54,495 bases of DNA from a virus (Duplodnaviria; Caudoviricetes), in IMG/VR virus record IMGVR_UViG_3300002091_000037, positions 1-54,495 of that record; one strand, 5' to 3'. Positions within the stretch are counted from its first letter, which is position 1. Each line of letters opens with the position of its first letter. Positions 125 to 54,495 of the stretch are shown piece by piece. The notes under the pieces are model-generated. The model was not told the DNA's origin and made no database searches. It saw only the letters and a list, made by a program, of their open reading frames with translations. A program made the translations under genes and the position numbers.

Positions 125-215
125 AAGACAAAGCCCCATTTCTGGGGCTTGTCCATCTTCTAGGGAAAAATAGAAATGTATCAACTATGGCAAATAGCAT
201 CTACACAATTATTTA
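125..215. repeat. Unit-boundary conserved sequence, copy 1
   Basis: Nearly identical (few substitutions and indels) to 33344-33434; the sequences upstream of the two copies are unrelated. Confidence 0.9.
127..153. terminator. Probable intrinsic terminator hairpin, possibly bidirectional
   Basis: GACAAAGCCCCA-TTTC-TGGGGCTTGTC stem-loop downstream of the 213..533(-) gene; conserved at 33346-33374. Confidence 0.6.
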
Positions 216-533
216 GTCCGAGACTGAGGTAAGGATGTTACTTGATACCGAATCACGCAGAGCCTGCAGTCTGGCTTCTGTGGCCAGGCGCTCCTGCTCC
301 TCGCGATGTGCCTGCAGTTGAACTTCTTGCACCAACTCCAAATACTCAGGGCTGAACTGCCCGTCTCTGATCCAGCCCATGTGCACCAGATGCACATACT
401 TCATGATGTCTTCTTCTGTGACACCAGCCTGCTCCATGAGCAACACAGCAGTTTCAAAGGCATGCATTACACTCAATTTGGGTTTTGATAAAAATTTATT
501 GTCCTCGGGTCTATGTCGTACTGTTCTTGTCAT
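213..533 (-). CDS. Conserved hypothetical protein, 106 aa
   Basis: Homologue at 33432..33740 shares VMHAFETAVLLMEQ...HMGWIRDGQF; AAGGA RBS upstream. Confidence 0.8.
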   Translation of the reverse strand: MTRTVRHRPEDNKFLSKPKLSVMHAFETAVLLMEQAGVTEEDIMKYVHLVHMGWIRDGQFSPEYLELVQEVQLQAHREEQERLATEARLQALRDSVSSNILTSVSD

Positions 534-559
534 AATAATTCCTTAGGGTTAGACTCATG

Positions 560-569
560 TAAATATTTA
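560..569. promoter_or_regulatory. Palindromic TAAATATTTA: candidate bidirectional late-type promoter
   Basis: Reads TAAATA on both strands between divergent genes; conserved at 33767-33776. Confidence 0.5.
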
Positions 570-908
570 ATGCTTTACACAATCTACAGAGTACTTTACC
601 CAGGACTGGAACAGGTCAATCAATACTACAAATGGAAACATGAATTTCCCGAGACCAATTATGTCAAGGAGAATCGCGCTGGACCACCTCGCAAGATACG
701 TGGTAATACCCAGTGTCCTGGATGTGGGCGCACACTGAGTTACAATCAAATATATGCAGACGTACACAAGTGTCCAGGAACACTCACAGACCATCCAGTA
801 AAACCACGTGGGCATCGACCCGGCAGACCCAGTAAAAGTGAACTGGCTCAAAAATGGATTGAGTATGTGCAGGAGAATGATCACCCCATAACCTTTGGTG
901 AAGATTAA
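570..908 (+). CDS. Putative zinc-finger DNA-binding protein
   Basis: CPGCG...HKC motif plus basic RPGRP segment; start moved to ATG 570 by alignment with homologue 33782..34135. Confidence 0.7.
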   Translation: MLYTIYRVLYPGLEQVNQYYKWKHEFPETNYVKENRAGPPRKIRGNTQCPGCGRTLSYNQIYADVHKCPGTLTDHPVKPRGHRPGRPSKSELAQKWIEYVQENDHPITFGED

Positions 909-924
909 TTGGCTAAATTGTGTG

Positions 925-953
925 TTGACACTAAATAAACAAATCAGTATAAT
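925..953 (+). promoter_or_regulatory. Perfect sigma70 consensus promoter with TAAATA in the spacer
   Basis: TTGACA (925-930), 17 nt, TATAAT (948-953); TAAATA at 932-937. Confidence 0.85.
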
Positions 954-1044
954 ATTATTATACTGAAAGGACGTGTATGGAAATGATGTGGTTAATAACG
1001 GGCCTGTTTGTGGCACTTGCCCTAGACATATGGAGGCAAGCACG

Positions 1045-1410
1045 ATGAAATGGATCATGGCTTTAATTTTAAGCACCTGTGGCATAGTACAGGCAGCAAC
1101 TTGGTATACCTATGCACGTGACGAGGATGGTGGCTTTCATGACTACGAACACAGCATGATCACACATCATGAAGATGCTGGCAAGGTGTTGGTGGTATGG
1201 GCGCGAACACGTCCCTTTATTGACACACCCAAGACCAGCAAGTATGAACTGCATTGCCCCAGTCGCAGTTATAGAGTAACACACTCAATCCGAGTCACAC
1301 GCACTGGAGATGTTTATCAAATTGAAAACCCACAAGGCAAATGGCTATATGCTGTTCCAGACAGTGTAGAGATGGTGTTGATAGAACATTGTTGTGCAAA
1401 TTATCAATAA
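1045..1410 (+). CDS. Secreted/periplasmic protein with signal peptide (cargo gene; surface-adhesin-E-like by resemblance only)
   Basis: GGAGG RBS at 1032-1036; N-terminus MKWIMALILSTCGIVQAA looks like a Sec signal; absent from unit B. Confidence 0.65.
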   Translation: MKWIMALILSTCGIVQAATWYTYARDEDGGFHDYEHSMITHHEDAGKVLVVWARTRPFIDTPKTSKYELHCPSRSYRVTHSIRVTRTGDVYQIENPQGKWLYAVPDSVEMVLIEHCCANYQ

Positions 1411-1417
1411 ATAAAAT

Positions 1418-1780
1418 ATGAACTTGAAAACCAATCAAAACACCAATGGACACGGCGGAGCCAGACCCGGAGCCGGGAGACCCAAAGGTTCAACGCCCAA
1501 AATTCGCGTTGAAGATCTTTTGGACCAAATTGAAATGGCCACAGGCAAGAGCTATGCCGAAGTACTGGCTTGGAACTATGCCGGAGCCATAACACGCAGT
1601 GACTGGAGTCAAGTCAGCATATATGACCGTGCGTTTCTAAACAAGATAGTTGCAGACAAAACAGAAGTAGAGATCATTGGCAATGATGAAATGGTAGAAC
1701 TGCGTCAAGCGGCCTTTGCAGAAGCCATTAATCAATTGAATCAGGCTGCAAGAACTCGCCCAGACAACGACACTAAATAA
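1418..1780 (+). CDS. terS: Probable terminase small subunit
   Basis: GGARPGAGRPKGS N-terminal motif common in TerS-like proteins; first gene of the late cluster; homologue 34509..34856. Confidence 0.6.
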   Translation: MNLKTNQNTNGHGGARPGAGRPKGSTPKIRVEDLLDQIEMATGKSYAEVLAWNYAGAITRSDWSQVSIYDRAFLNKIVADKTEVEIIGNDEMVELRQAAFAEAINQLNQAARTRPDNDTK

Positions 1781-1802
1781 TATTAAAGGATTCTGTACAA
1801 CT

Positions 1803-2078
1803 ATGCCACTAATCAAATCAACTTCAGCAAAGGCGTTTGGCGAGAACATTGCTCGGGAGCGTGCCGCTGGTCGGCCAGAGAAGCAGGCTGTGGCCATTGC
1901 CTATAGTGAGCAACGTGCAGCCGCTAAGAGTGAGCATCACAGCACACACAGCCAAAAACGTAGTGAGCACTATCATAGTCGGGTAGCAGGTACCAGCATC
2001 CAACGTGGCTCCAACAAGATGACACAAGCCAAGAGCCAATTAAAGAATCATTCCGAGAACATGGGAGAAGAGTTTTAA
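1803..2078 (+). CDS. Small basic phage protein (KQAVAIAYS motif)
   Basis: Homologue 36508..36810; AAGGA RBS and upstream TAAATA (1774-1779). Confidence 0.75.
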   Translation: MPLIKSTSAKAFGENIARERAAGRPEKQAVAIAYSEQRAAAKSEHHSTHSQKRSEHYHSRVAGTSIQRGSNKMTQAKSQLKNHSENMGEEF

Positions 2079-2224
2079 TGGCCACCAAAGGTGTTCGTAA
2101 ACTTAATCCTACTCGTATGATTATGAGTCCAAGTAGCCTGGCCGCTCGTCGTGCCGTTACTGAGAATGTCGCCAGTTTTAAAAAGGTCAAGCCGCCTAAG
2201 GCTACGAAAAGGAAAACAAAATGA
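2078..2224 (+). CDS. Small Lys-rich protein, 48 aa (not in ORF track)
   Basis: TAATG and ATGA overlaps with neighbours; C-terminus FKKVKPPKATK shared with 36803..36967. Confidence 0.65.
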   Translation: MATKGVRKLNPTRMIMSPSSLAARRAVTENVASFKKVKPPKATKRKTK

Positions 2225-2523
2225 AAACAACAGCGAGCAATTTAGATTTTGACGGCATGGCCGGAGACGGCGTTAACCGCGCTCAGAACCGTTATGCACA
2301 CAATCAATGGAGCGGCCATTCAAATGATGGACGTGACGTCAACATGGGCCTCATGCAGAGCCAAAGACGAGGCAATGCAAGTTCAAGTCCAAAAGATGTT
2401 GGACCCTCAGCAACACGTGACAAACGTCAGTTGACCATTGCCACAGCCAGTCAAGGCGTTAACATTGGTAGCGGCTTCCACTGCCCTTCATATGGCAATC
2501 CCGACAAGATCAACGTAGGATAA
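2221..2523 (+). CDS. Conserved hypothetical protein, 100 aa
   Basis: Homologue 36964..37266. Confidence 0.8.
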   Translation: MKTTASNLDFDGMAGDGVNRAQNRYAHNQWSGHSNDGRDVNMGLMQSQRRGNASSSPKDVGPSATRDKRQLTIATASQGVNIGSGFHCPSYGNPDKINVG

Positions 2524-2527
2524 ACTC

Positions 2528-2872
2528 ATGGCATTCATCGCACAAGGCAACGCTGTTGCAATCTCAGCAGGACCAACAGTTACAGTGGCCAACATCGCCA
2601 CCAATGGTAATGCATTTAGAATACTAAATGCCAATGCAACTGCTTACAGTTATGTGGGCGTGTTCAATGACTACAACACAGCACTGACCCTGAATGACCC
2701 ATCAATTGGAGATGCAGGCGGCGGCTATGGAACCATTATGGCACCCAACTGGCCCGAGGTCATTGCCGGCAACTTTGGTGTGCAACCAAGTCCACAAACA
2801 GTTTATGTTGCTGTAATTACGTCAGGTGCAACAGGTGTTGTAACAGTGATCCAACCAGGACGCGAAGCATAA
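2528..2872 (+). CDS. Hypothetical beta-rich protein, possibly virion decoration
   Basis: Divergent homologue 37271..37630 shares YVGVFNDY and GNFG. Confidence 0.7.
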   Translation: MAFIAQGNAVAISAGPTVTVANIATNGNAFRILNANATAYSYVGVFNDYNTALTLNDPSIGDAGGGYGTIMAPNWPEVIAGNFGVQPSPQTVYVAVITSGATGVVTVIQPGREA

Positions 2873-2905
2873 CATGAGCATCAGTTCAGATATAAGGAGC
2901 ACTCA

Positions 2906-3100
2906 ATGAAAGACGCAATGAAACGACATGGCAAGTGGATACAGGCAGCCATTGGTAAGCCTGGAGCACTGCATCGCGAATTGGGTGTGCCAGCTGGAGA
3001 GAAGATACCTGCAAAGAAGTTGGCACGGGCTGCTAAGGCACCTGGCAAGTTGGGACAACGTGCCCGCCTTGCTGAAACACTAAAAGGATTTAAAAAATGA
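2906..3100 (+). CDS. Small basic phage protein (KWIQAAIGKPGALH type)
   Basis: AAGGAG RBS; near-identical homologue 37639..37833. Confidence 0.8.
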   Translation: MKDAMKRHGKWIQAAIGKPGALHRELGVPAGEKIPAKKLARAAKAPGKLGQRARLAETLKGFKK

Positions 3101-3387
3101 TAACCGCACAAGCAAAGAAATCAGTAAAGATTGCAAAGGAAACTGCATCAAGTTGGTCATGTGAGAACCAGTATCACAAAGACAATGTCAACGTTGCAAT
3201 GGGACCACGCACGGGTAACAGAGGCACTCCCTCAAAGCGCAGTGACTTTGTTGCAGCCAAAGCCGAACGTGAACCTTTAGCAGCCAGCATACTAACGGCA
3301 TATGGTGCAAGAGCACAAGACGACTATGTGAATCCCAAATTGGAAAGCATTCGTTCAACAGTTAAGCCACACAAGTTTAGCCGTTAA
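3097..3387 (+). CDS. Conserved hypothetical protein
   Basis: ATGA overlap; homologue 37830..38156. Confidence 0.75.
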   Translation: MITAQAKKSVKIAKETASSWSCENQYHKDNVNVAMGPRTGNRGTPSKRSDFVAAKAEREPLAASILTAYGARAQDDYVNPKLESIRSTVKPHKFSR

Positions 3388-3484
3388 CTTACCCCATTCA
3401 CAGCGGGGCCACCAGCACTGTGACGAGTTCGAAAACAAGTGTTTTGGTTTTCTGGTGGCACATTTTATTTTATAAGGAACAGAA

Positions 3485-4291
3485 ATGAAAAAGACAGACA
3501 AGAAGCCCGCCAATGACGCATGGGACTTGGATCCCGAAACTGGCGACACAGTTGCCATGACACCAGAAGTAGAAGAGGCTGTAATTCCAACGACTCTCAC
3601 CCGGCCTGAACCCGAGTCTAAGAAACCTATCATAATTGAGTTTGACATGGAAGGTCTGATGACAGACTTTCCCAATGCCACCGAACTGCAAAAGTTTGTG
3701 TATGACCAAACAGGCATTGTGTTGAACCTTAAAGGTCGTGCCAACAAGTTAAAGTATCAGATTGCCATGGACACACTCAATGGTGTCATACCCGATGAAG
3801 CATACTTGGGCGCTGAGAATCCTTATCTGGACAAGAGTGAACTCATCCCCACAGAGCCTTTAAAAGAATTGCCACCGCGTGATCCCATAATTGATGCCGC
3901 AGGACCTGAAGTCACACGCTTCTCAACTAACCAATTCCCACATCCGGACCCAGATTGGCGTGCGCAGGATCAAAAATGTCAAGTCATATTCCGCAAGTAT
4001 GCCAATAACTTGATCACGTATGAAGTGCTGGGTCCTATTGCACAGCGTGCCCTAGGCACAAAGATCAACAAGTTTGGACAAAAGCAACCTGAACGCATTG
4101 TGTGGATTGACTGCAGAACTGGTGAACAGATTATTCGCAATGACCGTGGCCAACTTACTCCATTAGGCACTCGCCTTAAGAGTTTCATGTCACGCATGAA
4201 GGTCAACAAATCAAATCAATGGGACGTGTGGATTGATCGCGACTTTGTGCTTGCTGGTGATCTAGTTAGTGATAACCCTTGGGGTGAATAA
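3485..4291 (+). CDS. Conserved hypothetical protein, 268 aa
   Basis: AAGGA RBS; highly similar homologue 38246..39046. Confidence 0.85.
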   Translation: MKKTDKKPANDAWDLDPETGDTVAMTPEVEEAVIPTTLTRPEPESKKPIIIEFDMEGLMTDFPNATELQKFVYDQTGIVLNLKGRANKLKYQIAMDTLNGVIPDEAYLGAENPYLDKSELIPTEPLKELPPRDPIIDAAGPEVTRFSTNQFPHPDPDWRAQDQKCQVIFRKYANNLITYEVLGPIAQRALGTKINKFGQKQPERIVWIDCRTGEQIIRNDRGQLTPLGTRLKSFMSRMKVNKSNQWDVWIDRDFVLAGDLVSDNPWGE

Positions 4292-4572
4292 TGACCATTG
4301 GTCCTGAACGACAACAGTTGGCAGCACAACAGGCTGCTGATGTCAAAATCATGCAAAAGGTCAATCGTGTTAACCGTGAGGCCTTTCTTGACAAGTATCC
4401 CAGCCAAGTAGAACATTGTTTACGTTTAACAATGGAACGCTTGCAAGCCGGACTTGACAAACGCGATGGTGTTGATACGGGCAATCCTGATACTTGGCGC
4501 ATGACTCCAGAGGAACTTGCTAGCCTAGCACAAACTGCACAAGCATTAGACACGATCCGTAGAGGATTCTAA
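4291..4572 (+). CDS. Conserved hypothetical protein directly upstream of terL (alternative TerS candidate)
   Basis: Homologue 39549..39830; abuts terL. Confidence 0.75.
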   Translation: MTIGPERQQLAAQQAADVKIMQKVNRVNREAFLDKYPSQVEHCLRLTMERLQAGLDKRDGVDTGNPDTWRMTPEELASLAQTAQALDTIRRGF

Positions 4573-6195
4573 ATGCTTGATCCCAGTGTGTTAATGCGTC
4601 GTGCCATACGTTACGTATGTGACCAACATGACCTTGCGGTCAATAACCTACATCACTTGCCTAGTGTGCAAAAAGCCGCACTACAGGAATTGGTTATAGA
4701 AATCGCAGATGACATGCGCTATAATCAATTACGATACTTTAGACCATTTGAACATCAGAAGCGTTTCTTTACAACTGGCAACAGTCAACGTCGTGGTATA
4801 CTTGCTGCCAATCGAATTGGTAAGACGGTATCCACCTGCTTTGAGACTGCAATTCATCTCACTGGTCTATATCCGGATTGGTGGGAGGGCAAACGATTTG
4901 ACAAGCCAGTGACTGCAATGGTAGCAGGCGAGGGCTGGAGTCAAGTTGCACTGGTATTGCAAAATGAACTCTTGGGCACAAACGATGTTAAAATTCGGGA
5001 CAACCTAGGCACTGGTGCCATACCACGTGACTCGATAGTATTTGATACCATGCGCGGAGATGGTGCCAACTGTATTGGTGTTGAAATACGACACACAAGC
5101 GGCACCAACAGTTATTTGTTGTTTGCCAACTATACTCAAGAAGTGCGTCAGATGCAGGGTTTCAAACTTAACCTGGCCATCTTTGACGAACAGCCACCTG
5201 ACGATTTCTTCTCAGAGATAGTTACGCGAACTGCAACTACACAAGGACAAGTGCTGTGTAGTTTCACACCGCTTAAAGGACTTAACGGACTAGTAAGTAA
5301 ATTTTGGAATCATGAGGATGGATATGAACATATACGAGTATCTTGGGATGACGTGCCAGAATATGATCCCTGGGGCGAACCATTTTTGCTTAATGAGACA
5401 CGACGTCAATTGGAGCGTGACTACTTGCCTCATGAGCGTGACGCTCGTCGTAATGGCGTGCCTGTTATGGGCAAGGGAGCAGTATTTCAAATCCGAAATT
5501 GGCCCACATACAAGACGGGTGATTATGACCTGCGTAACACTACTGGTATTAGGCGTATTATTGCTTTGGACTTGGGACTGGTAAACGACAAGACTGTGGT
5601 GTCATTGATGTATTGGCATCCCGACGAACAGGAAGCATGGTTGCACACACAGATCATTGTCAAGGGCGTTGAAGAAGCCAATCCCATGAACTATATCAAT
5701 CATCTCATGCGTCCCGAAGTGTTTGGCACGCCCATTGTGTTGCCAGCTGATGCTAGTAGTCAAGGACGTTATACAATGTCAAGCCAATCAATTAGAGAAC
5801 TGTTTGAAGAATACGAACTCAATGTCATTGGCGAGCCCATAATGAATCCACCAGATGATCAAGGACGCAGAACCAACCATAAAAGTTATGGTGTCAACGT
5901 CATGCGTCAGATGTTGGAGATTGGCACACTACACGTCAACGAAAACTGTGTGGAGTTCTTACGTGAAGCACAGAACTACTTTGTTGATGAGCGAGGTCGC
6001 TTCTCAGATCCCGATGACTGCATTGACTCTGCACGTTATGCACTGCTAGGATGTTTAAATGGTCTAGCAGAACCCTGGGACGGACGCAGTCCACAACAGC
6101 GTATGCGTGACTTTAGACATCAAGTTCGAGCACGGCAATGGAATCAAGCACAGTCATTGCCCAGTTGGAAACAGAGCCATAACCCACAGGGCTGA
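4573..6195 (+). CDS. terL: Terminase large subunit, P22-like
   Basis: Walker A AANRIGKT, Walker B IFDEQPP, coupling motif FTP, RNase H-like nuclease motifs ALDLG...DDCIDSARY. Confidence 0.95.
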   Translation: MLDPSVLMRRAIRYVCDQHDLAVNNLHHLPSVQKAALQELVIEIADDMRYNQLRYFRPFEHQKRFFTTGNSQRRGILAANRIGKTVSTCFETAIHLTGLYPDWWEGKRFDKPVTAMVAGEGWSQVALVLQNELLGTNDVKIRDNLGTGAIPRDSIVFDTMRGDGANCIGVEIRHTSGTNSYLLFANYTQEVRQMQGFKLNLAIFDEQPPDDFFSEIVTRTATTQGQVLCSFTPLKGLNGLVSKFWNHEDGYEHIRVSWDDVPEYDPWGEPFLLNETRRQLERDYLPHERDARRNGVPVMGKGAVFQIRNWPTYKTGDYDLRNTTGIRRIIALDLGLVNDKTVVSLMYWHPDEQEAWLHTQIIVKGVEEANPMNYINHLMRPEVFGTPIVLPADASSQGRYTMSSQSIRELFEEYELNVIGEPIMNPPDDQGRRTNHKSYGVNVMRQMLEIGTLHVNENCVEFLREAQNYFVDERGRFSDPDDCIDSARYALLGCLNGLAEPWDGRSPQQRMRDFRHQVRARQWNQAQSLPSWKQSHNPQG

Positions 6196-6234
6196 AACAC
6201 ACTAAATAATAGATAATATGATAGGATCCCATCC

Positions 6235-8508
6235 ATGTTGGATATAAAAAACGTAGTCATTAGCAACTTAAACAATCACAAGGGCATGATGGCTCGTTTT
6301 GTGAAAATGTATAGTTTATTGCAAGCCAAATGCGCCGCAAACTTGCGCTTGTTGGCCACAAAGAATAACATTAATCGTGCAAGCGATTATCACTATCTAG
6401 TTCTAGCTGTCACACAGTCAACAGAGCCAGTAAACGGCATTGACTATATTCACCCAGTGGTAAAACCCATAGTTGATTATGCAAGTGCGGTTATCACTAA
6501 GGGACTTGCACAAAATGGACACATCAAGTTTGAGTTTGTGCCCGACAACGAAGCAGATGCGCCAGCTGCCAAGCAGGCCACAGACATGGTCAACAAGATC
6601 ATTAATCAAAACAATGACCCACATCAGATTCTACAACATTGGGTCATGGATGCTGCACTACACAAAAACGGTGAGATGATGGTCAGCCCCATGCGTGAAA
6701 GCATTGTGCGTTATGTAACTACACAAGGCACAGCAGACCAATTAAAAGCATTTGAACAACAAGCAGAAGAGTCGGGATTAAAAGCACTACGTCAAACACG
6801 TCGCAAAGTGCGTGTGGACATGGAAAAGGTCATGGCTGAAACACAACAGTATGTGCAAGGACTACCAGAAGAACAACGTCAAGCCGAATTAGATCATCGC
6901 ATTGGTCAAGCAGAAGCAGGTGCTGCAGGTGAATTTGACATGATGAATGAGGAAGCACCCAATATTGAATTACAGGATGCAGAAGATGAGTTGACTGCAA
7001 GCATCACACGCAACACCATATATGAAGCCAAGTATAAACTAACTGGTTACAACCTAAATGTCAAGTTCCGTCCCATTGCACAACACTATTGGATGTGTGA
7101 TCCCACAGTTATCAGCATTGAAGAACAACCTTTCTGTGGATATTACAAGCCTATGTCAATCCAGGAAGCAACTGAACTGTATCCTGACATTGATTTGGAA
7201 CAATTTAAGGTATATGCACAGTATTCAAATGTGGGTGCATACCAAGCAGGCAGTTTGCTTAACAACTTGGCCCTACACGCACGTGACAGTGTGCCAATTA
7301 ACGGTTTACCAGCACAAGGTTATGCTGCACAAGAACCAGAAGCACGCCAAATTACAGTATTGACAGTTTACAACCGTTATGACATTGACGGAGATGGTGA
7401 ACTGGAACTAGTAGAACTAATTTTTAGTGGACAATATGTGATCAGTGCTCGTGAAGTAGAGTTTATACCAATTGCCAACATGTGTCCAAAACCCCTGCCA
7501 CAAAACTTCTATGGTATGAGCATTGCAGAGTCAGTTGTGCCCATGCAAGAATACGCTACAAGCGGACACAGAGCAGAAATCATGATGGGCTTGCTACAGG
7601 CAACACCACGTATTGGTGTTAAACCTGACAAGTTGGACTTTGAAATGATACAAGATGGCGAAGCCGCAATCTTTATCTTGGACAGCAAGTTCGACCCAGC
7701 CAAGGACATTTATCCATTACCTTTGCCTAACGGCAATTTACAGTTCATAGACACTGCCATGAATCGTATTCAACAGGATACAATGGCCATGGTGGGTATG
7801 ACAACACCCAATGATGTGTTCAATCCCGAAGTTATGAGCCCTGGTAACAGTGGTGTCAAACTGCAAATGGCACTTACACCAAACCAAATCATTCAAGACA
7901 ACTGTGTCAAGAATTCAGCTGAGGGGTTGAAGGAAGCCATTTGGTTGGTATGGCGCACACTGATACAGTATGGTGATGATTATGGTGTCAAGAAATTGGC
8001 AGCAGAATTCCACCCCGAAGGCAAGCCCGAATTCTTAGACTATAAAAACTTTGAAGACATGACATTCAATGATCGCAAGATCATACACATTGATTTGGCA
8101 TTGGGTATGCGTAGTGATGAGAACCAAATTCAACGCAACCAAATCATTCAACAGAGCCAACAACAGTTGTATCAGACAACACAGGCACTTGTGGCACAGG
8201 GCACACTAACCCCACCAATGTTTAAGAAGATGCGTAAGCCTTACGAGGACACCTTGTATGCATTGGGTGTAAAAGATGCTGACATGTATTTGCCCACAGA
8301 AGAAGAAGTGGTAGAAATGATTAAATCAGCACAGGAATACAAGAAGACACAAGGACCAAGTCCTGATGACCAAGCCAAAGTGGCAAAAGCCAAATTGGAT
8401 ACTGCTCGTGCAAGTGAAATTGAAGCAGATGTGCAGGGCACAAGTGCCAGTAAGCAATTGGAAGGTGTTGCACTCATTGGTGAACACAAGGCCACTGCTT
8501 ACGCTTAG
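6235..8508 (+). CDS. Portal protein, P22-like
   Basis: 757 aa directly after terL; PQNFYGMSIAE and DIDGDG motifs; Gln-rich helical C-terminus. Confidence 0.9.
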   Translation: MLDIKNVVISNLNNHKGMMARFVKMYSLLQAKCAANLRLLATKNNINRASDYHYLVLAVTQSTEPVNGIDYIHPVVKPIVDYASAVITKGLAQNGHIKFEFVPDNEADAPAAKQATDMVNKIINQNNDPHQILQHWVMDAALHKNGEMMVSPMRESIVRYVTTQGTADQLKAFEQQAEESGLKALRQTRRKVRVDMEKVMAETQQYVQGLPEEQRQAELDHRIGQAEAGAAGEFDMMNEEAPNIELQDAEDELTASITRNTIYEAKYKLTGYNLNVKFRPIAQHYWMCDPTVISIEEQPFCGYYKPMSIQEATELYPDIDLEQFKVYAQYSNVGAYQAGSLLNNLALHARDSVPINGLPAQGYAAQEPEARQITVLTVYNRYDIDGDGELELVELIFSGQYVISAREVEFIPIANMCPKPLPQNFYGMSIAESVVPMQEYATSGHRAEIMMGLLQATPRIGVKPDKLDFEMIQDGEAAIFILDSKFDPAKDIYPLPLPNGNLQFIDTAMNRIQQDTMAMVGMTTPNDVFNPEVMSPGNSGVKLQMALTPNQIIQDNCVKNSAEGLKEAIWLVWRTLIQYGDDYGVKKLAAEFHPEGKPEFLDYKNFEDMTFNDRKIIHIDLALGMRSDENQIQRNQIIQQSQQQLYQTTQALVAQGTLTPPMFKKMRKPYEDTLYALGVKDADMYLPTEEEVVEMIKSAQEYKKTQGPSPDDQAKVAKAKLDTARASEIEADVQGTSASKQLEGVALIGEHKATAYA

Positions 8509-8538
8509 TATAAATAAAATTAATAGATTGGAATTGAT

Positions 8539-46673: not shown

Positions 46674-46698
46674 ACTCAGCAACGAGTTTATTAACCTC

Positions 46699-46720
46699 AA
46701 AGGGGCTTCGGCCCCTTTTT
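46699..46720 (+). terminator. Intrinsic terminator after MCP
   Basis: AAAGGGGC-TTCG-GCCCCTTT-TT. Confidence 0.9.
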
Positions 46721-46739
46721 CTTTACACTAAATAATGTT

Positions 46740-47354
46740 ATGAACGACTTTGACTCCGTAGGAAATCGCAAGAGTTACTTAGATGACTCTGACCCAGAAC
46801 ATAACCCAGATCAATACCGTATGGATCGAGGTGGGCTAGTTACCACTGACAACGGCATTGCAGACAGACTGTTAAAAAACGATGCATTATACAACGCCAT
46901 GAAAGGCGATTGGAAACGCAGCGATTTTAACAAGAGCCGAAACATACGTGTAACAACTGGCCGTGAAGATGGCAAGTTTTACATACAAAAAGAACAGTTC
47001 AACGTGGAATATATACGTGAACAATGTCAAGAATACCGTAAACGTGCCGAAGCCGGATACATGGATCCCTTAGCACCAGTAATGCCAGATGGCAAGTTGG
47101 GCCACAAGTGGATTGAACTACCCGAAATCCTAGCACAGGATATTGGCAACAAATACTTTGGTGGCCTAAGTTGGCACACCATCAAACGCGACAGAACACT
47201 GAAAGCACAGTTCTATCGTGTGGTGCAACAGGAATACAATGACTTTGTCTGCTATCCAGGTGGACGGTTACCCATTCCCATAGAAGTGCCATATCCCACA
47301 GCAGTTGGACAAAAGGCCTTCTTTGCGGGTGCTAATTTTGCAGGAACACACTAA
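46740..47354 (+). CDS. Conserved hypothetical protein
   Basis: Homologue of 11917..12537. Confidence 0.8.
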   Translation: MNDFDSVGNRKSYLDDSDPEHNPDQYRMDRGGLVTTDNGIADRLLKNDALYNAMKGDWKRSDFNKSRNIRVTTGREDGKFYIQKEQFNVEYIREQCQEYRKRAEAGYMDPLAPVMPDGKLGHKWIELPEILAQDIGNKYFGGLSWHTIKRDRTLKAQFYRVVQQEYNDFVCYPGGRLPIPIEVPYPTAVGQKAFFAGANFAGTH

Positions 47355-48079
47355 TGTCAACACAAATTAATGACGCAAATGGCCTAGTCAGTTATCTAGA
47401 AGACTTTACCGGATCAAACAACAACAGCGAGATCAAACAGTGTATATACTTGGCTGAACTCATGATGCGTAACATTGAGTTACCAGCATTGCGCACAGAT
47501 CCCTATACCACAACGGGCACAGCAGATGAAAATGGCTATGTGCCAATTCCCGCCAATATGAACAAGCCCATCCTGTTCTTTAATCAAGGTAATCAAGGCA
47601 CTAGTGTAAACTCAGGTCCTTGGATTGTTTATGATCGTATTGGTGATAGAGATATCATTACAATGCAATTGGTAGAAAACATGTTCTTGAATCCAGTTAA
47701 TGTGCCGCAAGTGTATCGTGGCAAGTTTGGCGAAGTAGGACAGAACTATGAATTTACACCAGGCTTGGGTGCTGGCAATATCATCAACATGTATTACTAT
47801 ACCACATGGCCCTTGTTGTTTGCCATAGACAGCAATGACGAACCTGTGCTGAACAATGTGGTATTGCAGTCATGGCCCGAAGGTTATGTTTACGGAACAC
47901 TACACAATTATTATCTCAAACGCAAAATGTTTGATGATGCTGGCTTTTGGAAAGCCAAATTTGATGAGGCTTGGAACACAGTCGAAGATCAAAACAACAA
48001 AGGTAAATGGGCTGGCGGTCATAATAGGTTAACCAGTATATTCCAACCAAGACGAGACAGACGCTACTCACTACGATAA
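47354..48079 (+). CDS. Probable head-tail adaptor
   Basis: Homologue of 12537..13517 without the insert. Confidence 0.65.
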   Translation: MSTQINDANGLVSYLEDFTGSNNNSEIKQCIYLAELMMRNIELPALRTDPYTTTGTADENGYVPIPANMNKPILFFNQGNQGTSVNSGPWIVYDRIGDRDIITMQLVENMFLNPVNVPQVYRGKFGEVGQNYEFTPGLGAGNIINMYYYTTWPLLFAIDSNDEPVLNNVVLQSWPEGYVYGTLHNYYLKRKMFDDAGFWKAKFDEAWNTVEDQNNKGKWAGGHNRLTSIFQPRRDRRYSLR

Positions 48080-48089
48080 GGATTAAGTT

Positions 48090-51000
48090 ATGCCATCATT
48101 ATATGGTTTTACAGGCAACGCAAATGTATCTGTGACAAATACAACTGGACTGTATCAACTTTCCAGTAACACAGGTATAGTTCAAAACGCATATGGCAAC
48201 TTGAATGTGGCTGCCTATTTGCCCACTTACACAGGTAATGTGTCAAGTGCGGGCCTGGGCCTTAGTGGTATCTTCACTGACCATTATTACTATGCCAATG
48301 GCGCACCATTTATTGGTGGCAGTGGTGGCGCAGGAACCTATAGCAATGCCAATGTTGCGGCTTATTTGACCACAAGCACTGGAAACATACAAGCCGGAAA
48401 CATTACAGTATTGGGCAACTTGTATGTGCAAGGTAATACCATTACCAGATACACTGCCAATACCATTGCCAGTCAAATTATTGCCAATGGTGCTATTCCC
48501 AGCACCAGCACCACAACAGGTGCCTTACAAAGTTATGGTGGCTTGGGCGTACAAGGCAACATCAACGCTGGTGCAGTTTACACAAACAATTATTTTTATG
48601 CCAATGGCACACCATTTGCGTCAAGCAGTTATGGTAACAGCAATGTCAGTGCTTACATGGCCGGCGGTACTTTGGGCAACATCATAGTCACAGGCAATGT
48701 CAAGGCCTATGGTGCCATTGTTTCTACTAACTTTACATATCCCAATGGTGTCAGTATTCTTAGCGGAGTTACTGCCAACTATGGTAATGCCAACGTAACA
48801 GCATTACTTGCTGGCACAGTTACTATTGGTAACTTGACCACAGTCAATGGAGTATTTTGGCCCAATGGTGAACCCTACAGCAGTGGCAGTGTCATCAACA
48901 CATATGGCAACGCCAATGTTGCGGCTTATTTGAGCAGCAACACTGATCCCACAATCAGTAACCTAAATGCCAACACACAACAGCAACAAGCACAGATCAA
49001 CACAATCAATGCCAATGTAACTGCCGCAAATGTAAACATACAAACCATTAGTGCCAACTTGGGCGCATTTGAAACTGCAACCAATCTAAGTCTTGCAGGG
49101 GCCAATGCCGCAATTGCCGCTACCAATGCCAACATTGGCAGTTTCTATACCTATGCCAATGCCACCTATAGTACGCAAGCCAATGCTGGTAGTTTACAGA
49201 ATCAGATCAATGGTGCCAATGCCGCAATCATAACAGCCAATACTGCTATGAAGAATTATGTAGATGCTGGCAACACTACAATGACCAATTATGTCAACAA
49301 TCAAGTTACCACTGCTAACACAGCAATGAAAAACTATGTTGATGCAGCCAACACCATACAAAGCAATCAGATTACCACATTGTCAAATGGTCAAACTGGT
49401 GCCAACGCAAGTATTAGTGCGTTACAAGCCAACGTGGGTAGTTTCTATACCTATGCCAATGCCACATATTCAACTCAAGCCAATGCAGGTGCATTGCAGA
49501 ACCAAATAACTGGTGCTAATGTAAACATACAAACCATTAGTGCCAATTTGGGCAGTTTTGAAACATATGCCAATGCCACATATTCAACTCAAGCCAATGC
49601 AGGTAGTTTGCAGAATCAAATAACTGGTGCTAATGTAAACATACAAACCATTAGTGCCAATTTGGGCAGTTTTGAAACATATGCCAATGCAACTTACAGT
49701 ACCATTGCCAATGCGGCCTCATTGCAGAGTCAGATCACGGGAGCAAACGTTGCAATTGTAACTGCAAATACGGCAATGAAATCATATGTAGATGCTGCCA
49801 ATAGCATACAATCTGCACAGATTACGACCCTACAAGGACAGGTTTACAGCAACGCCAATGCAGCCAGCTATCTAACTGTGTACACTGGTAATATTCAGGC
49901 AGGCAATGTATCCATACTAACTGACTTATCGGTTGGTGGCAATACAATTATTACTGGTAACTTGACTGTATATGGTAACACAACAACAATCAATTCAAAT
50001 GTCATTACCACAAATGACTTAAACATCACAGTTGGTAATAACCAAACCTCAGGTGCTGCATTGAACAATGCAGGTATTGATGTTGGTAGTAACAACTTGG
50101 CCACTTGGAGATTCAACAATGCTTCAACAAGTTGGCAATCAAACATCAACATTACTCCACAAAGTAATGCAGTATACAATTTAGGTGCACCAACACTGCA
50201 ATGGAATACCATTTATGGTAGAGATGTGCAGGCCGCAACTGCCACATACACAGGCAATGTCACTGCTGGTAATGTGTCAGCAACAAACTTAACCAACCAA
50301 TACAACTTTTTGCAAGGTGAGATTGATGGAGCAAATGCTGCCATTATAACTGCCAATACTGCTATGAAATCATATGTGGATGCAGCCAATACTGTAATGA
50401 CCAATTATGTCAATAATCAAGTCACTACAGCCAATACTGCAATGAAATCATATGTGGATGCAGCCAATACGATTCAAAGCAATCAGATCAACACAATCAA
50501 TAATAATATTATTGGGGCTAACGCGGCAATACAAACACTAAGTGCCAATGTGGGCGCATTTGAAACTGCAACTAACCTAAGCCTTGCAGGTGCTAACGCG
50601 GCAATACAATCAACAAACGCCAATATTGGCAGTTTCTATACATACGCAAATGCCACATATAGTACCATAGCAAATGCGGCAAGTTTACAAAGCCAAATTA
50701 CGGGAGCAAATGCTGCCATTATAACTGCCAATACTGCAATGAAGGCATATGTTGACGCAGCCAACACCGTCCAGAGTGATCAAATACAAACTATCAGTGC
50801 CAACTTGGGTGCATATGAAATTTACGCCAACGCAGCCATTACCAGTATCAACGGCAATGTAACTGCGGCCAATGCCGCAATACAAACATTAAGCGCCAAT
50901 GTGGGTGCATTTGAAACTGCAACCAATTTAAGTTTATCAGGTGCTAATGCGGCAATACAATCAACAAATGCTAATATTGGCAGTTTCTATACCTATGCAA

Positions 51001-54000
51001 ATGCCACATATTCAACTATCTCAAATGCGGCAAGCCAACAAACACAAATTAACACTTTAATAACACAGGTATATGCCAATGCCAATGTGTCAGCATACTT
51101 GCCAATTTATACTGGTTATATGGGCGGTACTGCCAATAACATTAACATTTATTCTACTACCAGCACTAATCCTTGGGCAGTTATTCCAATTGTAGGTAAT
51201 GCTGCTACTGGTAGTCAAGCACCGTTTGTTGATGCTGCCTTACCTGGTGCATATAACAGTACATTCTATGCCAATACATTGATTAATAATTTTGGTAACA
51301 GTACCGGCTCCATCAATTACTACAATTTGTCAGGCAACATTGTATATGCCAGTACATCTGGTTACGACGCTGGATTGGGTTTTTGGAGATCAACTGATGC
51401 GGGTACAACTTGGAGTCAACAAACTACATCAACTTATGCCACTTGGTATTATCATGTTCCTTATTATACTGGTGCCGCGTTTGTTGCTGGCGTTCACGCA
51501 GGAACAGGAACCACGTACGGTATATATAGAAGTCTTGATGGCGGAACAAGTTGGACCAGCACATTAGCCAATTATGGTAGTAAGAGCAATCAATGTTGGG
51601 CCACAAGCGGATCTAACACAATTGGAGCTTTTGAAAGAACTTACGGTAGTAGTGGCAATGCAGGTGGTATTTGGATATCTAGTAACAATGGCGCCAGTTG
51701 GACAAATGCATTTGGTACAGGTACCAGTTATACAAATGGCTACGTAGAAGCAGTATACAATACAGGCACTGGCAGAATATTAGCAGGTATAAGCGGCACT
51801 ACATATCGTAGTGTCTATTATTCTACAGATGATGGTGCTTCATGGAGTGCAACTAACGCACCTTATGGCATGCAGCCAGTCTCTTTCTTAAATACCGGGA
51901 CAGCCATATTAGCAGGATGTTTTGGAAATGGTACTTCCAGTAGAGGTATTTGGAAATCTACAGACAACGGTACTAATTGGTCACAAGTGTTGTCAAATGG
52001 TGAATATATCAACACCATAGTTAAATTAGACAGCGGAATTTTACTAGCCGGCACCAACAGTATTAATGGCGGCATATATAGAAGTCTCGATGGAGGAGAC
52101 ACTTGGGCCATAGTCCCGGGATCTACTACTTCAATTCAAGGCCCGTTAACAGCAACACAAGGCATATTATCTATAAATGGCGGCACAAGAATACTTGGCG
52201 GTAATGGATTCGACGGTAGTCAGACCAATCTTGTTACTTTAACAACACAACCCGTTGGCCTATTTTGGAACGGTAATACCAATACACTTAATGTAGCACA
52301 AGGCACTGTTACCGCAGCCAATGTGATTTCAACTAATGGCTACTATTGGGCCAATGGTGCACCTTATGCAACATCTACTATAGATAACACATATGGTAAT
52401 GCCAATGTGGCAGCATACTTGCCTACATACAATGGTAACCTAGGTGGCACACTGACAACAGCAGCACAGACCAACATAACCAGTATTGGTACATTGGATT
52501 CATTAAATGTCACAAATGCAATAACTGGCGGTAGCATATTAACTGCGACTGGTGTGTATTGGTCCGGTAACGGTCAACCATACAGCACTGGTGGCGGCAG
52601 TTCAACATATGGTAATGCCAACGTTGCTGCCTACTTGCCCACAGACAGCACAATTATTGCAATCAATGCCAACGTTGCTGGTGCCAATGCGGCACAGACG
52701 GCAGCCAATACTATACAAAGCAATCAAATTAATGCTATAAATGCCAATGTGGGCAGTTTCTATACATACGCCAACGCTACGTATTCAACACAGGCCAATG
52801 CTGGTAGTTTACAAAATCAAATTACAGGTGCCAATGCGGCAATAGTAACTGCCAACACAGCAATGAAGTCATATGTTGATGCAGGCAATACCATACAGAG
52901 CAATCAAATTGACACATTGACCAGCGGACAAACTGCTGCCAATGCTGCAATACAAACCATAAGTGCTAACCTAGGTTCATTTGAAACTTGGGCCAACGCC
53001 AACTTTGTAACCACAGGCGGCACATACAGCAACACCAACGTCACTGCTTATTTGGCAGGCACTGTGAGTGTTGGCAACATTGCCAGTGCAAATGGTTACT
53101 TCTGGAGCAACGGCACTGCTTATTCAACTGGCGGCGGTTCAAGTGGAGTAACACAAATTGTTGCTGGCACTAATTTAAATATTAGTCCAAGTGGTGGTAC
53201 TGGCGTTGTTACAATTAACGCCAACACACAACCAGGCACATACACCAACAGCAATGTCACTAACTTGTTAAGTGGTGGCACATACACAGGAGATGTCATT
53301 GCAACAACTGGCGTAGTAAATGCCAGTGCAATGACTGCTACTGGTGCATTAACAGCAGGTAGTTATCTACAAGCCAATAATGGCTTATATTCAATTGACA
53401 CATTTTCTGGCACCTACAGTGATGGTATTGTTGTTGATTATGCAACAGGTAGCGGACGCATCAGCGTTGGCACTGCAGACAATTTAACATTCTATACAGG
53501 TGGTGTAGCGGCTACACAAACACTACAGTTGGCCAGTAATGGTGCTGCTATTGCAGGTAACTTAATAACCACAAACGGCGTATTCTGGAGCAATGGTGTT
53601 GCATATTCAACTGGTGGTGGCTCTAGTGGAGTAACAAGTATCACAGCAGGCACGGGTATTACAGCCAATGCCGCAACAGGTGCAGTCAGCATTACCAACG
53701 CAGGTGTAACTGCTATTGTTGCTGGTTCAGGTATCACTGCTAATGCCTCAACAGGTGTAGTCTCAATTAGTTCTACAGGTGGTGGAACAACATTTAATGG
53801 CAACTTGTTAGGCAATACCTTAGTTGACACAACTAACAATCGTGTGACAATTAATGCAAGTCCATACAGTGATCCTGGTATTCAGCCACCCTTGTGGCAG
53901 AACATGAAGAATAATCCGCCTGTGTATATTGGTGGTGTATTGCAACCACCAACATATCCCAACATCAACAATTTGATCAGTAACGACAGTTACCTGATGT

Positions 54001-54495
54001 TTACCACAAGCAACATTGGATTGCAAAGCAGTTACCAAACCACAAACACACGATTTACCAACGGTATATTGAACTATCAAAGTGCATGGCCAGTGACTGC
54101 CAACACTATGACCAATAATGACCGTTTGCGTAATACTACCAGCATATTAGATCTTAACATGGCCGGTAAGTCTTGGGGCACTACTGCATCATCAACATTC
54201 AATGCTGCAGTTGGAGTTCAACAGAATTTCTTAAACTTATATGGCAATGGATATGTTACATCTGGCGCAGGCACAGGCAGTGTAATTTATATAACACCAA
54301 TTGGCACTGCATTGGGCACAGGACTCAGTGCAAACATCACTTATGCCACTGGTGTTGTGAGTGCGGTGCAACATCAAACCACATATGGCTCAACTAACAC
54401 AGCCAACATCACATATGCTCGTGGATATACTGCACAGGTAAATCTAGGCAGTAACAGCGCGGCAGTGACCAATGCCATTGGTTTCCATACTCCTA
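48090..54495 (+). CDS. Very long tail fibre, >2130 aa, 3'-truncated by the window (not in ORF track)
   Basis: AAGGA RBS, starts MPSLYGFTGN; still in frame at the window end (...TNAIGFHTP, cf. TNAVGLH in unit A); YGNANVAAYL, TANTAMKSYVDAAN and GSFYTYANATYS repeats; Asp-box domain at ~51300-52200. Confidence 0.85.
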   Translation, partial: MPSLYGFTGNANVSVTNTTGLYQLSSNTGIVQNAYGNLNVAAYLPTYTGNVSSAGLGLSGIFTDHYYYANGAPFIGGSGGAGTYSNANVAAYLTTSTGNIQAGNITVLGNLYVQGNTITRYTANTIASQIIANGAIPSTSTTTGALQSYGGLGVQGNINAGAVYTNNYFYANGTPFASSSYGNSNVSAYMAGGTLGNIIVTGNVKAYGAIVSTNFTYPNGVSILSGVTANYGNANVTALLAGTVTIGNLTTVNGVFWPNGEPYSSGSVINTYGNANVAAYLSSNTDPTISNLNANTQQQQAQINTINANVTAANVNIQTISANLGAFETATNLSLAGANAAIAATNANIGSFYTYANATYSTQANAGSLQNQINGANAAIITANTAMKNYVDAGNTTMTNYVNNQVTTANTAMKNYVDAANTIQSNQITTLSNGQTGANASISALQANVGSFYTYANATYSTQANAGALQNQITGANVNIQTISANLGSFETYANATYSTQANAGSLQNQITGANVNIQTISANLGSFETYANATYSTIANAASLQSQITGANVAIVTANTAMKSYVDAANSIQSAQITTLQGQVYSNANAASYLTVYTGNIQAGNVSILTDLSVGGNTIITGNLTVYGNTTTINSNVITTNDLNITVGNNQTSGAALNNAGIDVGSNNLATWRFNNASTSWQSNINITPQSNAVYNLGAPTLQWNTIYGRDVQAATATYTGNVTAGNVSATNLTNQYNFLQGEIDGANAAIITANTAMKSYVDAANTVMTNYVNNQVTTANTAMKSYVDAANTIQSNQINTINNNIIGANAAIQTLSANVGAFETATNLSLAGANAAIQSTNANIGSFYTYANATYSTIANAASLQSQITGANAAIITANTAMKAYVDAANTVQSDQIQTISANLGAYEIYANAAITSINGNVTAANAAIQTLSANVGAFETATNLSLSGANAAIQSTNANIGSFYTYANATYSTISNAASQQTQINTLITQVYANANVSAYLPIYTGYMGGTANNINIYSTTSTNPWAVIPIVGNAATGSQAPFVDAALPGAYNSTFYANTLINNFGNSTGSINYYNLSGNIVYASTSGYDAGLGFWRSTDAGTTWSQQTTSTYATWYYHVPYYTGAAFVAGVHAGTGTTYGIYRSLDGGTSWTSTLANYGSKSNQCWATSGSNTIGAFERTYGSSGNAGGIWISSNNGASWTNAFGTGTSYTNGYVEAVYNTGTGRILAGISGTTYRSVYYSTDDGASWSATNAPYGMQPVSFLNTGTAILAGCFGNGTSSRGIWKSTDNGTNWSQVLSNGEYINTIVKLDSGILLAGTNSINGGIYRSLDGGDTWAIVPGSTTSIQGPLTATQGILSINGGTRILGGNGFDGSQTNLVTLTTQPVGLFWNGNTNTLNVAQGTVTAANVISTNGYYWANGAPYATSTIDNTYGNANVAAYLPTYNGNLGGTLTTAAQTNITSIGTLDSLNVTNAITGGSILTATGVYWSGNGQPYSTGGGSSTYGNANVAAYLPTDSTIIAINANVAGANAAQTAANTIQSNQINAINANVGSFYTYANATYSTQANAGSLQNQITGANAAIVTANTAMKSYVDAGNTIQSNQIDTLTSGQTAANAAIQTISANLGSFETWANANFVTTGGTYSNTNVTAYLAGTVSVGNIASANGYFWSNGTAYSTGGGSSGVTQIVAGTNLNISPSGGTGVVTINANTQPGTYTNSNVTNLLSGGTYTGDVIATTGVVNASAMTATGALTAGSYLQANNGLYSIDTFSGTYSDGIVVDYATGSGRISVGTADNLTFYTGGVAATQTLQLASNGAAIAGNLITTNGVFWSNGVAYSTGGGSSGVTSITAGTGITANAATGAVSITNAGVTAIVAGSGITANASTGVVSISSTGGGTTFNGNLLGNTLVDTTNNRVTINASPYSDPGIQPPLWQNMKNNPPVYIGGVLQPPTYPNINNLISNDSYLMFTTSNIGLQSSYQTTNTRFTNGILNYQSAWPVTANTMTNNDRLRNTTSILDLNMAGKSWGTTASSTFNAAVGVQQNFLNLYGNGYVTSGAGTGSVIYITPIGTALGTGLSANITYATGVVSAVQHQTTYGSTNTANITYARGYTAQVNLGSNSAAVTNAIGFHTP
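49507..49690 (+). repeat. 114-bp-period tandem repeat in the unit B fibre (38-aa unit)
   Basis: TAACTGGTGCTAATGTAAACATACAAACCATTAGTGCCAATTTGGGCAGTTTTGAAACATATGCCAATGC identical at 49507 and 49621. Confidence 0.85.

Follow-up and report, generated by a model that had tools for sequence, protein, structure and literature searches.

The window analyzed here, a complete IMG/VR record of 54,495 nt that is classed as linear and scored 100 for completeness by CheckV, is probably an assembly composite of the genomes of two distinct sibling phages, designated R and Q, that co-occur in the same freshwater samples. What looks like a tandem is most likely an artefact of the database rather than a novel form of genome, and the switches between the genomes were presumably made by the assembler rather than in the cell. 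The window divides into these two genomes at two defined seams, and the parental, unswitched forms exist elsewhere (Table 1). Genome Q is complete, has a size of 34.7 kb and is recoverable as positions 2926-37658, and genome R, of about 37 kb, is partial here. A sequence-only reading of the same DNA had offered a concatemer of variants or a chimera of co-occurring relatives. The chimera is favored by our results, but its geometry differs from the one proposed, with the seams at 2926-3030 and 37659-37763.

Table 1. Features of the 54,495-nt window under the partition into genomes R and Q
Feature	Position	Strand	Remarks
End of genome R tail-end intergenic region	1-124	+	AT-rich, with GATAGCCG-like iterons; origin-like look
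24-nt patch, copy 1	125-148		Identical in both turns; bidirectional terminator stem-loop after minus-strand ORF 213-533; start of inter-turn homology
Genome R, segment 1 (early genes)	125-2925	+	Exact proteins on 28-43 public contigs (213-533: 33; 513-908, 112-aa form: 28; 1418-1780: 33; 2221-2523: 43; 2528-2872: 29)
64-aa gene, hybrid copy 1 (R7/P46)	2906-3100	+	Exact protein on 3 contigs
105-nt run, copy 1	2926-3030		Proposed switch from R to Q; identical to 37659-37763
Genome Q, one full turn	3031-37658	+	Period 34,733 nt including the 105-nt run; 16 exact proteins on 4-13 contigs
Q, TerL	4573-6195		
Q, portal	6235-8508		
Q, MCP	10097-11428		
Q, fibre	13530-17009		
Q, virion and cargo genes	up to 33343		
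Junction 33343/33344 of the sequence-only reading	33134-33740		Stop of plus-strand 69-aa ORF, terminator hairpin, ~65 nt spacer, convergent minus-strand ORF 33432-33740
Q, own early genes	33344-37638		
64-aa gene, hybrid copy 2 (K7/G46)	37639-37833	+	Exact protein on 3 contigs
105-nt run, copy 2	37659-37763		Proposed switch from Q to R; contig counts 10 (37271-37630) to 29 (37830-38156)
Genome R, segment 2	37764-54495	+	Exact-protein counts 29, 18, 36 plus 4, 33, 19; MCP 4
R, superoxide dismutase	39034-39552		
R, TerL	39831-41456		
R, portal	41496-43769		
R, MCP	45342-46673		
R, giant fibre gene	48090-54495	+	Runs off the contig end

Self-blastn of the window yielded direct, collinear matches between 125-954 and 33344-34161 (75.6% identity), 2166-4294 and 36903-39049 (76.5%), 4292-11483 and 39550-46727 (81.4%), 11900-13002 and 46722-47819 (79.7%), and 13293-13520 and 47855-48082 (73.7%), with an offset between the turns that rises from 33,219 to 35,258. 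Comparison of 20 first-turn with 23 second-turn ORFs gave 17 pairs of counterparts in the same order, with 32.5-96.8% amino acid identity. These matches and collinear gene pairs bear out the claim that the gene order restarts at position 33344 in the same orientation. The identity of the turns was 72-81% by blastn (median 200-nt window, 81%), indicating that they are not identical or nearly identical repeats of one genome. The differences listed in the sequence-only reading were largely reproduced. The MCP pair, said to differ at about 14 of 443 residues, was 96.8% identical over 443 aa, and the fibres, said to be strongly diverged, were 33% identical over their alignable part (1159 aa in the first turn and at least 2135 aa in the second, which is open-ended). 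The cargo also differed as claimed, the Fe/Mn superoxide dismutase and an endonuclease VII (36171-36521) being found in the second turn only and an HNH-like ORF (11448-11825, minus strand) in the first turn only. Bases 1-124 had no self-blastn match upstream of 33344, in keeping with the statement that unrelated sequence precedes the two copies. The small terminases, which had been called strongly diverged, could not be recognized as such, since no ORF matched the small-terminase family, and the two ORFs directly upstream of TerL had inter-turn identities of 77% and 90%.

The partition emerged from the number of public contigs that carry each exact window protein. Thirty proteins were looked up, one of which was not in the collection, and two were found mainly under another start, for which the shorter form listed on a 58,468-nt contig was used. 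The counts, which are of contigs rather than samples and are affected by gene length and microdiversity, were 28-43 to the left of the first copy of a 64-aa gene, 4-13 from this copy to the second copy, and 18-40 to the right of the second copy. They thus changed about threefold and in opposite directions at the two copies, from 29 to 9 and from 10 to 29. The exception among the R counts on the right was MCP, with 4 contigs, the number found for both MCPs. The counts for R and Q differed significantly (Mann-Whitney p = 0.0008; 10 and 15 values), whereas division of the window into units A (125-33343) and B (33344 on), as in the sequence-only reading, gave p = 0.41.

Paired orthologues served as a control for gene conservation. 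To the left of the 64-aa gene, the first-turn copy was on more contigs in four of four pairs (log2 ratio +1.3 to +2.0), whereas to the right of it the first-turn copy was on fewer contigs in five of six pairs (-1.0 to -2.3), the remaining pair being a tie; the sign flip of the ratio at this gene was significant (p = 0.0095). For five proteins, the longest carrying contig was 36,467 nt each, and from the equal lengths only we infer that the five lie on one contig. An early gene in this set resembled the first-turn copy (94% identity) far more than the second-turn copy (42%), whereas the later genes were closer to the second-turn copies (93.5% versus 79.6%, 97.4% versus 89.6%, and 90.2% versus 87.7%). 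The 36,467-nt contig, which is of ordinary genome size, therefore appears to carry the R combination.

We located the seams in the 64-aa gene, both copies of which contain an identical 105-nt run. This run is the longest of the 83 shared runs of at least 20 nt between the turns and lies within the most similar 200-nt alignment window (97% identity versus a median of 81%). It is flanked by the diagnostic residues 7 and 46 of the protein, and both copies in the window are reciprocal hybrids at these residues. At the protein level, the parental alleles were found elsewhere, R7/G46 on 36 contigs and K7/P46 on 8, compared with 3 for each hybrid, where the 3 contigs could be independent assemblies or copies of one. 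The parental allele counts match those of the flanking genes of R (29 and 29) and Q (10 and 9). One of the hybrid-allele contigs is the 58,468-nt contig, which is longer than the window. A 228-nt patch was 96% identical between the turns in a local background of 50-78%, which points to a recent exchange between the two lineages, as does the sharing of a nearly identical 64-aa gene by both siblings. A search with a 40-nt piece of the 105-nt run found no near-identical IMG/VR contig with an alternative join.

The position at which the tandem units had been thought to meet proved to be an ordinary part of genome Q. The layout of an ORF stop, a hairpin and a minus-strand gene is also internal in the circular relatives G001, G003 and G005 and hence does not mark the end of a genome; the 33343/33344 adjacency is the native tail-to-head adjacency within Q. 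In run X1, a Logan contig covering 31509-33373 extends from the tail into second-turn-type letters with no differences, and the depths pair accordingly, 59.9 into 55.7, versus 117 into 139 for an alternative tail and a variant head. A Logan contig of run X4 joins 33127 to 33378. The suggestion of a joint at 33344 was therefore not sustained. A chimera joint at the 24-nt patch was likewise rejected, given the X1 contig that crosses it and depths that pair in three runs; 24 nt is moreover not long enough at the usual k. Its exact pattern was found in three metagenome contigs and in no other IMG/VR contig.

Logan contigs were compared over 20 kb (16401-36400), all of which is Q under the two-genome model. 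The five runs in which words of the window occur are all represented by short-read contigs. Depth was flat within noise over 16401-34409 in four runs (~56-78, 177-210, 50-75, and 3-5), with no change across 33344. In run X5, which contained 0.54 of the window words, the depth was low on both sides (3-5). The segment 34419-36400 was 1.35-1.64 times deeper in three runs, which we took to be due to sharing with a further variant. A third variant was present in the Logan data at from 0 to about three times the depth of Q.

The upstream end of the window was matched by an independent 4336-nt contig, L098, positions 4027-4336 of which are 100% identical to window positions 1-310. In L098, the region that corresponds to window bases 1-124 follows a 443-aa VapE-like gene (PF05272, 1e-41), and the upstream tail end is only 70% identical to window positions 30049-31485. 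Because this tail differs, the first-turn head follows a tail other than the one that stands in the same unit of the window. The upstream tail end of L098 fits genome R, that is, the genome of the last 16.7 kb of the window. The trace of a third genome that had been suspected upstream is thus not needed, bases 1-124 being the tail end of R itself; to judge from their sequence, these bases look origin-like. The VapE-like gene was absent from five of five near-complete relatives and from the window. As variable cargo, it argues neither for nor against the idea that unit A is incomplete for want of a replication gene.

The window belongs to an uncultured freshwater phage group with 535 MCP relatives in IMG/VR. 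The largest of the best 80 of these relatives is 36,789 nt, compared with 54,495 nt for the window, and the closest nucleotide match among the same best 80 MCP loci was 88% identical. Three relatives, whose ends overlap by 104, 127 and 123 nt, are closed circles of 35,153-36,761 nt, and they contain all modules of one window turn in unchanged order. Other over-long public contigs with relatives of the window proteins are 57,650, 51,145 and 45,203 nt long; they could reflect systematic trouble of assemblers with the swarm or something real. IMG/VR searches, from which very close records may have been withheld, found no near-identical contig with the 755-aa tail protein or with P0002, and the VapE-like protein found relatives at 63-66% identity only. 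The window gave no match in Rfam and tRNA scans.

These results suggest a route by which the composite may have formed. The contig would begin in the tail-end intergenic region of R and run through the early genes of R to the 64-aa gene, where it would cross into Q within the 105-nt stretch common to both genomes. Q would then be followed once round its circular map, including its ordinary tail-to-head adjacency at 33344, and on the second arrival at the 105-nt stretch the path would return to R and continue through the structural genes to a break in the repeat-rich fibre gene of R. Most likely, the crossing would have arisen from a graph edge common to R and Q or from the merging of overlaps, the stretch being taken for a repeat present in two copies owing to the similar depth of the genomes. 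In one JGI pipeline, k was 85-105 and contigs were merged on 80-nt overlaps at 98% identity (PMC4442139), settings under which the 105-nt run would not be resolved. The 104-nt end overlap of G001 fits k = 105. A k of at least 107 with 150-nt reads would resolve the run, in which case only reads in hybrid phase could carry a path across it.

Chimeric contigs where co-existing viruses have similar regions are described in the virome benchmarks of Roux et al. (2017, PMC5610896), and the window resembles them in that it switches within the longest identical run while unswitched junctions are found elsewhere. The usual chimera has one switch, whereas in the window a single shared stretch serves both as entry to the second genome and, one full turn later, as exit from it, and the window thereby mimics a tandem of 1.6 genomes. 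Over-long IMG/VR contigs are regarded as probable assembly artefacts in the CheckV paper (Nayfach et al. 2020, PMC8116208), and the window is like the concatenated genomes described there in being over-long with a repeated gene order. Those contigs repeat one sequence and have a k-mer frequency above 1, whereas the turns of the window show an identity of 72-81% along most of their extent, so that the k-mer frequency test would miss it.

The same structure could have been made in the cell and assembled faithfully, if one crossover in the 105-nt run had joined Q and R in co-infected cells. Cointegrates and dimers arise by homologous recombination between related circular replicons. When two circles cross over once in a segment that they share, the product reads R-left, hybrid, Q, hybrid, R-right, which matches both the R-Q-R order and the two reciprocal hybrid alleles that were observed. 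Recombination also favors the longest identical run, and the 228-nt patch suggests recent exchange between the lineages. Each hybrid allele is on 3 contigs, further over-long contigs are known for the group, and cell-fraction samples, if such they were, would contain replicating phage DNA. The parental forms, however, dominate the public assemblies (36 and 8 contigs versus 3 per hybrid), and the genes of R are on about three times as many contigs as those of Q, which indicates that the genomes are mostly apart. A cointegrate would be about 72 kb and presumably could not be packaged by a phage with relatives of 35-37 kb; it would therefore be a minority intermediate, and assembly should favor the parental paths instead. 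We consider a real cointegrate unlikely. If it were true, the window would have captured recombination between phage strains in a lake, in a molecule abundant enough for assembly. A chimera with only one switch is very unlikely. The assembly would have passed from one genome to another in the one-copy region at 17-30 kb, the first 17 kb belonging to the first genome and 33344 being the native adjacency of the other. L098 gives the first-turn head another tail, and Logan contigs break at 23344-23659, 23928-23957, 28408-28458 and 31474-31509, but no double-depth shared segment was present among the long Logan contigs, and the contig counts were steady from 3.1 to 37.6 kb (4-13), changing at the 64-aa gene instead. 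The PT-rich region at 23345-23658 was rejected as a shared segment, since a 69-nt tandem repeat within it, of about two copies, accounts for the break and the raised depth.

A true array in the geometry of the sequence-only reading, with a third unit followed by units A and B joined at the 24-nt patch, is slightly less probable still. The inter-turn homology starts exactly at this patch with unrelated sequence before each copy, and depth is flat across 33344. Against this geometry, the layout at 33344 is internal to circular relatives, the contig counts are mixed within unit A (28-43, then 4-13) and within unit B (8-13, then 18-40) with no significant difference between the units, and the hybrid and parental 64-aa alleles put the seams elsewhere. 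Its period of 33,219 nt also fits the sizes of the relatives less well than 34,733 nt. The least credible explanation is that related temperate phages integrated next to each other at a single attachment site as tandem prophages, the att core being the 24-nt patch. Tandem lysogeny is known to occur, and a short identical sequence does stand at the start of each unit. No PF00589 tyrosine integrase or PF00239 serine recombinase was detected in six frames at E values up to 1, however, and no integrase was found among 60 ORFs compared with PHROGs or 48 compared with Pfam; the window also lacks tRNA genes. There is no host flank, as phage tail-end cargo with a VapE-like gene lies upstream (L098) and a fibre gene occupies the downstream end. 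Relatives assemble as free circles, and a weak scan of 185,579 species genomes with two MCP peptide patterns found no relative. An assembly composite of R and Q is thus the explanation we favor.

Two genomes, a complete Q and a partial R, are most likely combined in a public viral record that is scored 100% complete. Treated as one genome, the record would mislead on genome size, gene content, clustering and the linkage of host and cargo, and k-mer frequency tests miss such errors because the two turns are diverged. Counts of exact-protein recurrence and the reciprocal hybrid alleles placed the seams within 105 nt without reads. The biology that is left is ordinary but useful: two co-occurring sibling phages of an uncultured freshwater group.

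The window is a complete IMG/VR virus record (54,495 nt, class linear, CheckV completeness 100) and contains the tailed-phage gene set twice, both times in the same orientation. Self-blastn aligned 125-13520 with 33344-48082 in five collinear direct matches (73.7-81.4% identity), with the offset between turns rising from 33,219 to 35,258, and 17 of the 20 first-turn ORFs have a second-turn counterpart (32.5-96.8% amino acid identity), confirming the sequence-only reading that the gene order restarts at 33344. Its observations on the MCP, the cargo and the first bases were also borne out: the MCP pair has 14 differences in 443 residues (96.8% identity), the gene-family assignments gave cargo genes that are not the same in both turns, and bases 1-124 had no self-blastn match to the sequence before 33344. 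Its strongly diverged small terminase was not recovered, as no ORF of the window could be identified as one; the pair of ORFs that precede TerL share 77% and 90% identity between turns. The blastn identity of 72-81% between turns rules out a single genome repeated.

Features of the window and numbers of public contigs carrying its exact proteins
Feature	Position	Strand	Remark
TerL	4573-6195 and 39831-41456
Portal	6235-8508 and 41496-43769
MCP	10097-11428 and 45342-46673
Fibre gene, first turn	13530-17009		1159 aa
Fibre gene, second turn	48090-54495		at least 2135 aa, open at contig end
64-aa gene, lysine- and alanine-rich product	2906-3100 and 37639-37833		the 228-nt patch
HNH/homing-endonuclease-like ORF	11448-11825	minus	just after MCP gene, genome Q only
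Ferritin/Dps-like protein	28028-28516		host-like cargo
FkbM-type methyltransferase	28962-29669	minus	host-like cargo
GroES/Cpn10	29669-29935	minus	host-like cargo
Fe/Mn superoxide dismutase	39034-39552		host-like cargo, genome R only
Contig counts	213-2872		33, 28, 33, 43, 29
Contig count	64-aa gene, copy 1		3
Contig counts	3097-12537		9, 9, 13, 10, 4, 4
Contig counts	28028-33137		6, 9, 8, 5
Contig counts	33432-37630		8, 8, 13, 13, 12, 10
Contig count	64-aa gene, copy 2		3
Contig counts	37830-47354		29, 18, 36 (+4), 33, 4, 19

IMG/VR holds 535 MCP relatives, and among the best 80 the longest contig is 36,789 nt. Five near-complete relatives were retrieved. In three of them, of 36,761, 35,153 and 36,244 nt, the ends carry direct repeats (104, 127 and 123 nt, respectively), and the order of modules is that of one turn, with none missing; terminal repeats of k-mer length are typical of circular maps after assembly, as a passage of the CheckV paper describes (PMC8116208). 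One turn is thus one genome of a 35-37 kb group, and the window holds about 1.5 genomes.

The longest exact run common to both turns is 105 nt (2926-3030 = 37659-37763). Together with a 73-nt run that follows, it forms a 228-nt patch of 96% identity, whereas the surrounding sequence is 50-78% identical. The patch is the 64-aa gene, which has at least 11 alleles in public assemblies and whose high nucleotide identity may reflect recent exchange or else a constraint acting on the DNA sequence as such. Of the 30 exact window proteins queried in a public protein collection, one was missing and two were counted under another start. A split at the 64-aa gene separated the contig counts (p = 0.0008), whereas the earlier split at 33344 did not (p = 0.41). 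With orthologue pairs as a control for gene conservation, the first-turn copy had the higher count in all four pairs left of the gene, and to its right five of six pairs favoured the second-turn copy and one tied (p = 0.0095). Residues 7 and 46 of the protein flank the 105-nt run; the window forms, R7/P46 and K7/G46, were found on 3 contigs each, and the reciprocal forms R7/G46 and K7/P46 on 36 and 8, near the counts of the genes beside them once the window is split in this way (29 and 29; 10 and 9). A set of five proteins with a longest contig of 36,467 nt combined a first-turn-type early gene (94% vs 42%) with second-turn-type later genes; if, as their equal lengths alone indicate, this is one contig, it would carry the arrangement of genome R at normal genome length.

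The window is accordingly best explained by two sibling genomes, R and Q. It starts in R (1-2925) and enters the 105-nt run, Q then spans 3031-37658 in one full turn, and after the second copy of the run R resumes (37764-54495). The Q period of 34,733 nt is close to the 35.0-36.7 kb of the relatives after removal of end repeats, and under this reading each genome has one copy of every gene. The Q-R alignment has a gap at the HNH-like ORF, which looks like a mobile insertion. Both fibre genes are composed of numerous diverged repeats that centre on a conserved YGNANVAAYL-type motif, including a 46-nt unit present 12 times and a 114-nt tandem at 49452-49732. A further sequence, L012, matches 53572-54442 at 91%, and its contig ends about 55 nt or less from the window's end point.

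A plus-strand ORF of 69 aa ends at 33343 and is followed by a 24-nt G+C hairpin identical to 125-148, then by a brief spacer and a minus-strand ORF in convergent orientation. The same layout is internal to the circular maps of three relatives (G001, G003 and G005). Word shares of 28500-38400 in five freshwater runs from five studies were 0.98, 0.96, 0.96, 0.89 and 0.54, and the record may derive from one of these runs. Logan contigs (k = 31) of four runs were mapped onto 16401-36400. In run X1 a contig without differences spans 31509-33373, from the tail into second-turn-specific letters, and depths pair the window tail (59.9) with the window head (55.7) and an alternative tail (117) with a head variant (139). 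The same pairing was found in X2 (181; 366 with 386) and in X5. Because of this layout, the spanning contigs and the paired depths, the 33343/33344 adjacency is real and native to Q and is not a genome end. The further variant, at about twice the Q depth over 31509-33378 (117-139 in X1, 366-386 in X2; also seen in X5), has only short patches in common with the Q tail end and a head differing at 33375-33377. It was absent in X4, where a Logan contig joins 33127 to 33378 via another variant segment. At least four related genomes make up a swarm in these samples.

A single switch within 17-30 kb, our first model, was rejected, as depth was flat and no double-depth common piece was visible. Long Logan contigs had flat depth (about 56-78 in X1, 177-210 in X2, 50-75 in X4 and 3-5 in X5), as expected if 16401-36400 is all Q; a third variant over this region varied between 0 and about threefold that depth. 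The Logan break at 23344-23659 is explained by a 69-nt internal tandem repeat (23372-23524, about 2 copies, 98% matches), which encodes a Pro/Thr-rich linker in a 965-aa protein and interrupts the k = 31 assemblies of X1 and X4.

Metagenome contigs were scanned for the 24-nt patch, and three matched. One of them, L098 (4336 nt), is 100% identical to 1-310 and reaches 4026 nt further upstream, where it has homologues of 30049-31485 with an identity of only 70%, an ORF of 324 aa, a VapE-like protein of 443 aa (PF05272, 1e-41) and an AT-rich stretch with GATAGCCG-like repeats that ends in window bases 1-124. Since this sequence differs from the window tail, the first-turn head is preceded by another tail than the window's own; it supplies the tail end of R, so the trace of a third genome suspected upstream is not needed. 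The VapE-like gene is absent from all five near-complete relatives, and gene-family and integrase/resolvase profile scans recognised no DNA polymerase, primase, helicase or integrase in the window. Positions 3974-4150 of L098, directly after the VapE-like primase/helicase-type gene and including window 1-124, are AT-rich and flanked by five or six such repeats, one palindromic; they resemble a replication origin with iterons.

Of the two options originally left open, a chimera and a true concatemer, the former gained support, with the seams moved to the 64-aa gene by the counts and hybrid alleles. An assembler walk between R and Q probably made the tandem, since public assemblies mostly carry the parental forms, R and Q are generally found apart, and a molecule of about 72 kb would presumably not be packageable by this group. 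The same points make a real cointegrate improbable, although one crossover between R and Q circles would produce this order and these reciprocal hybrids as well, and sequence alone therefore does not separate the two. The hybrid forms on 3 contigs each, not 1, and other over-long contigs in the group (57,650, 51,145 and 45,203 nt) speak for the crossover and against the walk. Chimeric contigs at common regions and over-long IMG/VR contigs are documented in passages of PMC5610896 and PMC8116208. One JGI pipeline, as partly described in PMC4442139, used k of 85-105 and merged at 80-nt overlaps with 98% identity; it would not resolve the 105-nt run, although it may not be the pipeline of this record, and k of 107 or more would resolve it. 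Every window protein found also occurs on a contig of 58,468 nt, which exceeds the window by 3,973 nt, and the three over-long contigs carry relatives of window proteins; assembly of this group seems to yield oversized contigs repeatedly. Tandem prophages are unlikely, as profile searches and gene-family scans found no integrase or resolvase and a tRNA scan no tRNA in the window, no host flank is present, L098 continuing upstream as phage sequence, and relatives exist as free circles.

As a genome form, the tandem is most likely not real. For database quality, this means that a completeness-100 record most likely mixes two genomes; for the phages, the window provides evidence of recent exchange between two co-occurring siblings.
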